Numbered from the stretch's first letter, positions 18,488 through 18,779 are shown. The stretch: 64,000 nt of DNA from Trinickia sp. (GCF_036503415.1 NZ_DASXWY010000180.1:5065-69064), one strand, 5' to 3'. Program-made: numbers and translations. The notes: generated from the sequence alone by a model not told the origin.

Positions 18488-18779
18488 CTAGGGCCTGTTC
18501 ACGCTAATTACAGGCTTGCGCTGGCCACCAGAAGGGCCGAGCGCAAGGAATGGGACGAAGGGAATACTCGACGTATTCACAAGGAGCATGACGCGGCGAT
18601 CGGCCCTTCTGGTGGCCAGCCCCACGAAGGATTCCTACAACCAGGGGAACGTGCCTTGCCGGCCGCATTACGGCGTCGTTCGTCGTTGCAATAGCTACGG
18701 CTATTGCGCCTCCTCTCTCCTTGTCCTGCGGCCGGCAAGGCACGTTCGCAAGCCTGTAATTAGCGTGAACAGGCCCTAG
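18488..18779. mobile_element. MITE-like element with CTAG ends, terminal inverted repeats and twin internal hairpins
   Basis: Perfect 33-bp inverted repeat CTAGGGCCTGTTCACGCTAATTACAGGCTTGCG at 18488-18520 / 18747-18779. Internal 21-bp stems at 18520-18540/18600-18620 and 18647-18667/18727-18747. No transposase. Confidence 0.8.

Follow-up and report, generated by a model that had tools for sequence, protein, structure and literature searches.

We analysed a stretch of 64,000 nucleotides of Trinickia sp. DNA (GCF_036503415.1, NZ_DASXWY010000180.1:5065-69064), hereafter called the window, and describe a 286-bp element proper at positions 18491-18776 that lies between duplicated TA dinucleotides. 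The first-pass annotation of the window had read this sequence as a miniature inverted-repeat transposable element (MITE). The element fills the spacer between the gene for a Peptidase_C39_2/C70-like protein and the next gene on the same strand (17817-18326), and two hairpin modules face each other between its terminal inverted repeats, as follows.

18489-18490, unstranded: left TA copy of the duplicated target, inside CTAG; a single TA in the empty allele (contig L138)
18491-18520, plus strand: left terminal inverted repeat, GGGCCTGTTCACGCTAATTACAGGCTTGCG (repeat finder, pattern count)
18520-18540, plus strand: 5′ arm of stem A, perfectly paired with 18600-18620
18541-18599, plus strand: loop 1, 59 nt, containing CAAGGA, an apical hairpin and GACGC (from the sequence)
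18600-18620, plus strand: 3′ arm of stem A, paired with 18520-18540
18621-18646, plus strand: linker, 26 nt, A+T-richer, with CCCC and GGGG at its borders; the least conserved part
18647-18667, plus strand: 5′ arm of stem B, perfectly paired with 18727-18747
18668-18726, plus strand: loop 2, 59 nt, an inverted copy of loop 1 that has diverged from it, containing GGCGTCGNNCGTCG, an apical hairpin and CTCCTTG (from the sequence)
18727-18747, plus strand: 3′ arm of stem B, paired with 18647-18667
18747-18776, minus strand: right terminal inverted repeat (repeat finder, pattern count)
18777-18778, unstranded: right TA copy of the duplicated target (sequence and empty allele)
18776-19366, minus strand: gene for the Peptidase_C39_2/C70-like protein, 196 amino acids, whose TAG stop codon consists of the flanking TA and the terminal base of the element

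According to the repeat finder, the terminal inverted repeat is perfect over 33 nt (CTAGGGCCTGTTCACGCTAATTACAGGCTTGCG, CTAG included; arms at 18488-18520 and 18747-18779), and reaches 42 nt at 95% when extended. Its 30-nt core occurs twice in the 64-kb window, as compared to 0.00 expected occurrences, and the window contains one copy of the MITE. A 17-nt match at 31764-31780, considered as a second copy, lies inside a RelA/SpoT-type coding region and was discarded as a chance match. Stem A measures 25 nt at 96% when extended. The apical hairpin of loop 1 is GAATAC/GTATTC, at 18562-18567/18573-18578, and that of loop 2 is GCAATAGC/GCTATTGC, at 18688-18695/18700-18707. By hand count, CAAGGA occupies loop positions 4-9 and GACGC positions 50-54, both in loop 1 and in the reverse complement of loop 2. 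Every structural detail described earlier, namely the 33-bp repeat, the two modules with 21-bp stems and 59-nt loops, the 26-nt linker, and the placement of the shared loop motifs and apical hairpins, was thus reproduced from the sequence and the repeat finder. GGA motifs are present as CAAGGA and GGAG in loop 1 and as AAGGAG on the other strand of loop 2, all of them in internal loops.

The calculated fold energy of the whole element is -197.8 kcal/mol as RNA (z = -16.75), -194.2 kcal/mol as RNA of the other strand (z = -16.4), and -117.3 kcal/mol as single-stranded DNA (ssDNA; z = -16.0), and no shuffled sequence was as stable in any of the three cases. Among the copies compared, no reading frame remains open across all of them, and the element contains neither a sigma-70 promoter nor an intrinsic terminator consensus. 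No Rfam family corresponds to the element, permissive thresholds yielding only meaningless matches to microRNA models.

How widespread is the element? The species-representative genomes were scanned with a degenerate pattern of the first 21 nt, in which G was demanded at position 13. The loci from this genome scan and those from a plasmid and chromid collection, about 1 Mb of DNA, are hereafter called the sampled loci, and the family counts cover these (plus the window). The genome scan returned at least 118 loci, at least 84 of which are in Burkholderia, Paraburkholderia or Trinickia, while the other 34 among the matches listed are single chance matches in unrelated taxa. In the plasmid and chromid collection, eight records contain family matches. 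Full-length relatives occur there in B. stagnalis, B. cenocepacia, Paraburkholderia sprentiae and Caballeronia-type strains; a single B. stagnalis chromid carries 8-13 family sites, and Cupriavidus necator has a truncated copy or fragment. Both ends are present in 39 copies (sampled loci and window), which are 186-314 nt overall: most measure 280-287 nt, five measure 312-314 nt, and eight measure 186-247 nt. Terminal inverted repeats are present in all copies compared. In the isolate matching the window, the repeat k-mers are several-fold above the flank depth. In Burkholderia, Paraburkholderia, Trinickia and Caballeronia, each genome has tens of intergenic sites filled by the family, and the public records examined carry no annotation of it. 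A literature search on Burkholderia MITEs, or with the consensus as text, which did not cover ISfinder, found no description of the element.

The copies differ among genomes in their presence. At the window locus, the TA-(286 nt)-TA of the window corresponds to CATAC-TA-GATTC in L138, a contig of a different sample, and this empty site adjoins a gene for an identical 196-amino-acid protein. The two alleles are identical over the gene and about 170 nt of the spacer, and the differences between L138:3237-3290 and window 18440-18487, an extra G plus four or five substitutions, fall within 35 nt of the junction. Nine further contigs at this locus break off inside the repeat; repeats of this MITE break short-read assemblies. 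Likewise, a B. cenocepacia site is filled (L002), while the orthologous place is empty in B. arboris, B. stagnalis and B. multivorans. In addition, one insertion is common to two species-level genomes (L070 and L103), and therefore some copies are old. Both further copies and empty sites were thus looked for and found, and the element is not a single-copy sequence lacking empty alleles. The multicopy status, the presence/absence alleles and the absence of an open reading frame bear out the initial reading as a MITE. The element is shorter than about 500 bp and lacks a transposase gene, and it has terminal inverted repeats, a target duplication, many copies with presence/absence and ends matching an insertion sequence (IS), as a MITE does.

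Next, we consider the target. Most copies have TA at either end. At the sampled loci, 93 family ends are preceded by TA (62 by CTA and 22 by TTA) and 31 by CA (23 by CCA). Among the bounded copies, the flank pairs TTA...TAA, GTA...TAA and CTA...TAA are present, which excludes a 4-bp CTAG duplication. The duplicated sequence is TA, and CTAG is favoured as the target, with TTAA next. The question of TA or CTAG, which the first-pass annotation had left open, is thus answered for TA by the flank pairs and the empty allele, and the CTAG duplication is ruled out by the flank statistics. The CA-flanked ends are nearly always CCAGG, often on both sides of one copy (CA...TG), as at L001, L015, L016, L018, L021, L031, L037, L047, L060-L062, L065, L090, L115 and L123. 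These flanks look like CTAGG altered after insertion, and very-short-patch repair makes changes of the CTAGG to CCAGG type.

The choice of TA has a consequence for the neighbouring genes. The element starts with G on both strands, and therefore insertion in the TA of TAG or TAA always rebuilds TAG. Since TAG is rebuilt, the element can sit directly behind genes without damage, as it does behind the C39/C70-like peptidase gene. In annotated records, the stop codon is shared in this way by a glutathione S-transferase gene (strain YI23) and by an SMP-30 gene (P. sprentiae). Among 35 full-length copies, counting raw open frames rather than annotated genes, the TAG formed by the flanking TA and the terminal G terminates an open frame of 100 codons or more at 27/70 ends, as compared to 18/70 and 14/70 in control frames. 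This enrichment is modest, and the two sides of the element contribute 13 and 14 cases, with no orientation bias. TA is rare outside stop codons in a genome of about 67% G+C, and the TAG-restoring ends show how a transposon can live in such a genome, where TA is almost confined to stop codons.

How is the element mobilised? With the 33-nt repeat as the query, matches were found in two P. aeruginosa plasmids, directly upstream of an annotated IS5 family transposase. The IS in pWTJH2 is 826 bp long, is TA-flanked within CTAG, and has 15-nt perfect repeats (CTAGGGCCTGTTAAC). Its termini read TA followed by GGGCSTGTTMAC, as in the MITE, and its left end agrees with the window repeat at 19-20 of the first 21 element nucleotides, or at 22/23 with the flanking TA. 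The outer ~13 nt of the MITE repeat (GGGYSTGTTYAC) is the portion common to the IS5-family ISs. The transposase is encoded in two reading frames joined at an A8 slippery run, matches NF033580 (IS5 family) with 247 bits against a cut-off of 110, and contains PF13340 and PF01609 (DUF4096 and DDE_Tnp_1), both above threshold. We take this frameshifted group with DUF4096 and DDE_Tnp_1 to be IS427-like. Homologues with 77-83% amino acid identity are present on plasmids of B. gladioli, B. thailandensis, Caballeronia, P. phymatum and C. necator. The ends of the Burkholderiales homologues, TA followed by GGGC(C/G)TGTTCACACTA(A/T)T, match the MITE over 12-17 nt; in the P. phymatum copy, the left end is degenerate. 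TA flanks each of the five complete IS copies (pWTJH2 and four homologues), in most cases within CTAG.

The IS and the MITE thus have the termini TA followed by GGGC(C/G)TGTT(C/A)AC(A/G)CTAAT, the TA duplication and the CTAG-type target in common. In contrast, the IS is about 826 bp long with a transposase, while the MITE is 286 bp long without one. The sequence shared by the two is the terminal ~13-23 nt only, and their interiors are unrelated. Moreover, unlike those of the IS, the repeats of the MITE reach 30-33 nt, and each of the two is similar to the IS left end. We conclude that the element is very probably a member of an IS5-family-derived MITE family with a TA duplication. The early guess of IS5-family mobilisation gains support from an autonomous 826-bp element, which was looked for and found, with matching termini, TA duplication and CTAG-type target, and the view that the MITE is more than a simple IS deletion derivative agrees with the match being confined to the terminal bases. 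The naming of a likely parent IS makes the mobilisation testable, and the element is a marker of recent genome change between close strains. The pWTJH2 IS itself (L146:2440-2500 and 3331-3520) has no annotated gene immediately beside it, and lies about 0.9 kb downstream of a TetR/AcrR-family regulator gene (1075-1632), which is beside tmexC (RND efflux).

Mobilisation by an IS630/Tc1-mariner-type transposase, instead of the IS5-family enzyme, is very improbable. IS630/Tc1-mariner is the classic CTAG-target, TA-duplicating family, and the TA duplication and the CTAG/TTAA preference seen here are also its hallmark. However, the only autonomous elements found with matching termini belong to the IS5 family, and no IS630-type gene was seen beside such ends; with the IS5-family relative at hand, the IS630 reading is not needed, and it was set aside on the identity of this relative. 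A REP/REPIN-like origin, in which a RAYT (HUH tyrosine) transposase would move the element as ssDNA and the 27-nt GGGCCTGT...ACAGGCCC hairpin would be the basic unit, has a next to negligible probability, and fails on the TA duplication and on which IS the element is related to. In its favour, a solo 27-nt hairpin occurs frequently (14 loci) and hairpin pairing is conserved, as in REPINs. Against it, REP/RAYT systems leave the target unduplicated, whereas the present copies have a TA duplication and termini matching a DDE-type IS. The mini hairpins, moreover, retain the two flanking TAs and can be accounted for by deletion between ACAGGC or GGCCC repeats, and no Y1/RAYT transposase gene was seen in the loci.

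The IS5-type MITE family includes shortened forms. The 27-nt hairpin TA-GGGCCTGTTCACGCTAATAACAGGCCC-TA, with both flanking TAs kept, is present in 14 sampled loci, and a stump of about 37 nt, consisting of the terminal repeat and GCTGGCCC, also occurs in sampled loci with both TAs kept. Both remnants are as expected from a deletion that spans the big hairpin and joins short direct repeats (ACAGGC or GGCCC). One-module derivatives that have lost module 1 measure 186-188 nt (L051, L072 and L094) or 196-197 nt (L040 and L047), and each type has an identical internal junction, yet is found at different loci in different genomes. In a Paraburkholderia mimosarum copy (L012:1021-1302), module 1 is flipped relative to module 2, and the layout is tandem instead of mirrored, as recombination between the stem arms would yield.

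We then examined how the fold is conserved, using an alignment of 30 distinct full-length copies from four subfamilies (289 columns) and a structure obtained with RNAalifold. The program recovers the closing helix formed by the two terminal repeats, stem A, stem B and smaller helices. In 41 of the 91 pairs, at least one sequence is changed on both sides. Standard pairs make up 98.6% of the cells, as compared to 89.7% after shuffling and 31-41% after sliding the partner, and there are 197 double-change cells, as compared to 46.5 in shuffles. None of 500 shuffles reached any of the observed covariation measures. Three pair types occur in single column pairs (C-G, G-C and A-T at 37:125; T-A, G-C and A-T at 171:249), and double changes are present in 8/20 pairs of the stem A helix and in 10/15 pairs of stem B. 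A four-pair helix in loop 1 changes from ATGC/GCAT to GCGC/GCGC in one subfamily, and the apical hairpin of loop 2 has two alternative sequences, both of which pair. The 21-bp stems have a constant length in four genera. The earlier view that the structure is kept while the sequence has diverged therefore stands, on the covariation of these 30 copies.

What kind of constraint do these changes reflect? The mismatches in the three long helices amount to 10 GT/TG, 5 AC/CA and 12 others in about 1,950 cells. G-T is no commoner than the other mismatches, and therefore the constraint is Watson-Crick and acts alike on both strands. An RNA-specific signature, in the form of tolerated G-U pairs or strand asymmetry, was not seen in the three long helices. 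The Watson-Crick symmetry fits DNA, or RNA from either strand, better than one-strand RNA. Of the proposal that selection acts on an RNA or ssDNA fold, the covariation supports the part concerning the fold, while the lack of a G-T excess does not point to an RNA made from a single strand. Between subfamilies, the identity is 0.80 in the outer tips, 0.82 in loop 1, 0.87 in the 5′ part of loop 2, 0.76 in stem A, 0.60 in the inner terminal repeats, 0.49 in stem B, and 0.48, with indels, in the linker. Conservation thus concerns the sequence in the loops and only the pairing in the helices, and the linker is hardly conserved. In the orthologous copies of two species (L070 and L103), uncompensated stem changes accumulate at about the flank rate, which indicates that pairing is kept in the lineages founding new copies, and is not repaired in each resident copy. 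The approximately 40 compensated pairs, together with loops as conserved as the tips, make the family a clean case for distinguishing RNA selection, ssDNA selection and neutral template switching.

It is possible, and we put it forward tentatively, that the perfect stems are a neutral by-product of template switching, in which one arm is copied from the other (Ripley-type quasipalindrome correction). In the same tentative sense, a change in a single arm would be erased or mirrored with no selection on the fold. The strictly Watson-Crick, strand-symmetric pairing agrees with this process, as does the similar behaviour of all three helices, the terminal repeats included. The flipped module in L012 is as arm recombination predicts, and deletions between short direct repeats at the helix bases are common. 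However, the uncorrected mismatches in resident orthologues suggest that the correction is inefficient in place, and template switching leaves unexplained both why the loops are so much more conserved than the linker and why the 21-bp stem length is constant in four genera.

A somewhat more doubtful explanation is that the interior is a domesticated, orientation-independent RNA module: read-through transcripts would fold into a Y-shape under host-level selection. For the upstream gene, such a module could act as a 3′-end stabiliser or be a substrate of RNase III; it could also sponge a GGA-binding protein, for example CsrA/RsmA. The strong covariation, the conservation of the loops to the level of the tips with a linker free to vary, and the frequent location directly behind stop codons without orientation bias are all consistent with it. 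In addition, the mirror symmetry provides the same geometry on both strands, the loops contain AAGGA/GGAG motifs, and metatranscriptome contigs reach from flanking genes into copies; these unstranded contigs run from the neighbouring DNA into copies, and represent read-through at best. The binding of CsrA/RsmA to the GGA motifs is speculation. In contrast, there is no G-U excess, and the resident orthologues gain uncompensated stem changes at about the flank rate, unlike what is expected of per-copy purifying selection by the host. Many copies are deleted to scars, no Rfam family, promoter or terminator signal was found for the element, and transcription is seen only in the unstranded contigs. 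Similarly, we regard it as rather unlikely, though worth stating, that the twin-hairpin interior is a portable module that works in either orientation and is carried by the IS5-type MITE to stop-codon TAs. If this were true, the upstream gene would gain a Y-shaped 3′ structure, which could stabilise its mRNA, be processed, or sponge a protein by means of the conserved, GGA-rich loops. Functional selection on two strands would then account for the mirror symmetry, for the conservation of the loops and for a covariation that is strictly Watson-Crick, and the family would be a host-relevant RNA element of the Burkholderiaceae, beyond selfish DNA.

It is unlikely that the element depends on the fold to propagate itself, for instance through a pairing that brings its ends together in ssDNA at the replication fork, so that only well-paired copies would be sources. 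The near-perfect pairing in most copies and the decay in old orthologues fit such source-element selection, and the closing helix of the two terminal repeats is kept in all subfamilies. On the other hand, IS5-family DDE transposases act on double-stranded DNA ends, the parent IS has no such interior, and the one-module derivatives have spread to new loci. A mixture of RNA selection, template switching and a propagation role remains in contention.

On the basis of these comparisons, we propose the following scheme for the IS5-type MITE. A transposase of the IS group, encoded elsewhere in the genome or on plasmids, would act in trans; it would bind the GGGYSTGTTYAC tips and either cut and paste or copy the MITE. 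The interior, which is unrelated to the IS, derives from an old palindrome that diverged into two hairpin modules. In the source lineages, the three long helices are kept by strictly Watson-Crick compensatory changes; the resident copies slowly gain uncompensated mismatches and suffer deletions between short direct repeats. The fold would matter in a single-stranded state that treats both strands alike, such as read-through transcripts in either direction or ssDNA, and it may help the element to persist and spread.

Several points weigh against this scheme. First, we infer the IS5-family mobilisation from the common ends, the duplication and the target only. A tblastn search with the transposase found no IS in the window or in the sampled MITE loci, and no close IS homologue from the MITE-rich Burkholderia cepacia complex chromids was among the top tblastn matches. 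The IS and the MITE occur together in C. necator p1 (L004 and L151) and in P. phymatum strains, which is a coarse co-occurrence only. No IS-sized element with MITE ends was found in the genome-scan loci, but the scan pattern demands G at position 13, where the IS ends have A, and the lack of such elements in the scan is therefore uninformative; this mismatch leaves the co-occurrence of IS and MITE within genomes only loosely supported. Second, because of the extra G and the cluster of substitutions by the junction, the filled and empty pair at the window locus, taken alone, has a 1-nt ambiguity and leaves the duplication undefined to the base. Third, the one-module derivatives spread too, so the twin layout, or at least module 1, is dispensable for mobility. 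Finally, the in vivo fold is a prediction, and the metatranscriptome contigs indicate just read-through into copies.

The IS5-type MITE family belongs in kind with the Correia and ERIC elements. Correia (Neisseria) and ERIC/IRU (enterobacteria) are bacterial MITEs that insert at TA and form long hairpins when transcribed, and they share with the present family the small size, the TA target, the long terminal inverted repeats, the intergenic location and the fold of the whole element. In ERIC, compensatory stem changes have been reported, as in this MITE. Unlike Correia and ERIC, the present family has an unrelated sequence, another host family, a three-armed fold with two 21-bp/59-nt hairpins and conserved loops, a nameable IS5-family parent, and stop-codon-safe ends. 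REPINs and BIMEs share with the MITE the maintenance of hairpin pairing across a multicopy family and the short solo hairpins, but the MITE differs from them in its TA duplication and DDE-type IS ends, with no RAYT gene seen and no conserved GTAG-type tag. The T-shaped inverted terminal repeats of parvoviruses (A-B-B′-C-C′-A′, flip/flop) are alike in geometry only: an outer palindrome closes two inner ones, and an arm is flipped in L012. There is no relation in sequence, size, host or replication, and the analogy is one of shape.

Beyond the full-length copies, the loop motifs were not found outside MITE copies in the ~1 Mb of sampled DNA, and loop 2 alone, as the query against the plasmid collection, returned MITE copies only. 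Viral contigs gave two single matches, both by chance. In the isolate matching the window, short contigs about 88% like loop 2 (window 18661-18723) are present at about 15-27 times the flank depth, with a different stem, and their neighbouring sequence also differs (...ATGAAATCGCCCAGAT / ATCTGGACAATTTCAT). The flanks of these contigs have no match in any sampled locus. These sequences suggest a second, more abundant, diverged subfamily with a shared loop core in this genome. The same isolate contains a perfect palindrome of about 58 nt, in which the first 19 nt of both repeats are joined through TTCCAGGGGATCCCCTGGAA.

Some MITE copies carry a nested cassette of 25-28 nt, which consists of GTCCCC-N3-GGGGAC followed by TTCCTTYGGGCG, in either orientation. 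It occupies at least three sites within the MITE, namely loop 1, the apical hairpin of loop 2, and the junction of loop 2 and stem B. All seven matches to its exact pattern in the ~1 Mb of sampled DNA lie inside MITE copies. The cassette loci are L019:~388-430, L070:~1810-1845, L075:~6457-6500, L081:~7035-7075, L099:~262-295, L073:~3025-3060 and L040:~5110-5145, and the cassette is also present in L117, L131 and L115. The 312-314-nt variants of the MITE arise from this nested cassette, which could be a tiny mobile hairpin or a template-switch product.

The surroundings of the MITE in the window include several other features. A gene for a 248-amino-acid protein without a Pfam match (19378-20124, minus strand) adjoins the peptidase gene, and is followed by a gene for a LuxR-type regulator with Autoind_bind and GerE domains (20449-21216), with no synthase gene noted beside it. 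The region 19378-21216 is a possible orphan quorum-sensing regulator locus, judged from its domains. Rfam matches elsewhere in the window are a manganese (yybP-ykoY) riboswitch at 50718-50852 on the minus strand, the Burkholderia small RNA ncS025 at 35072-35152 on the plus strand (46.5 bits, slightly over the gathering score of 46), and three clustered tRNA genes at 62323-62700 on the plus strand.

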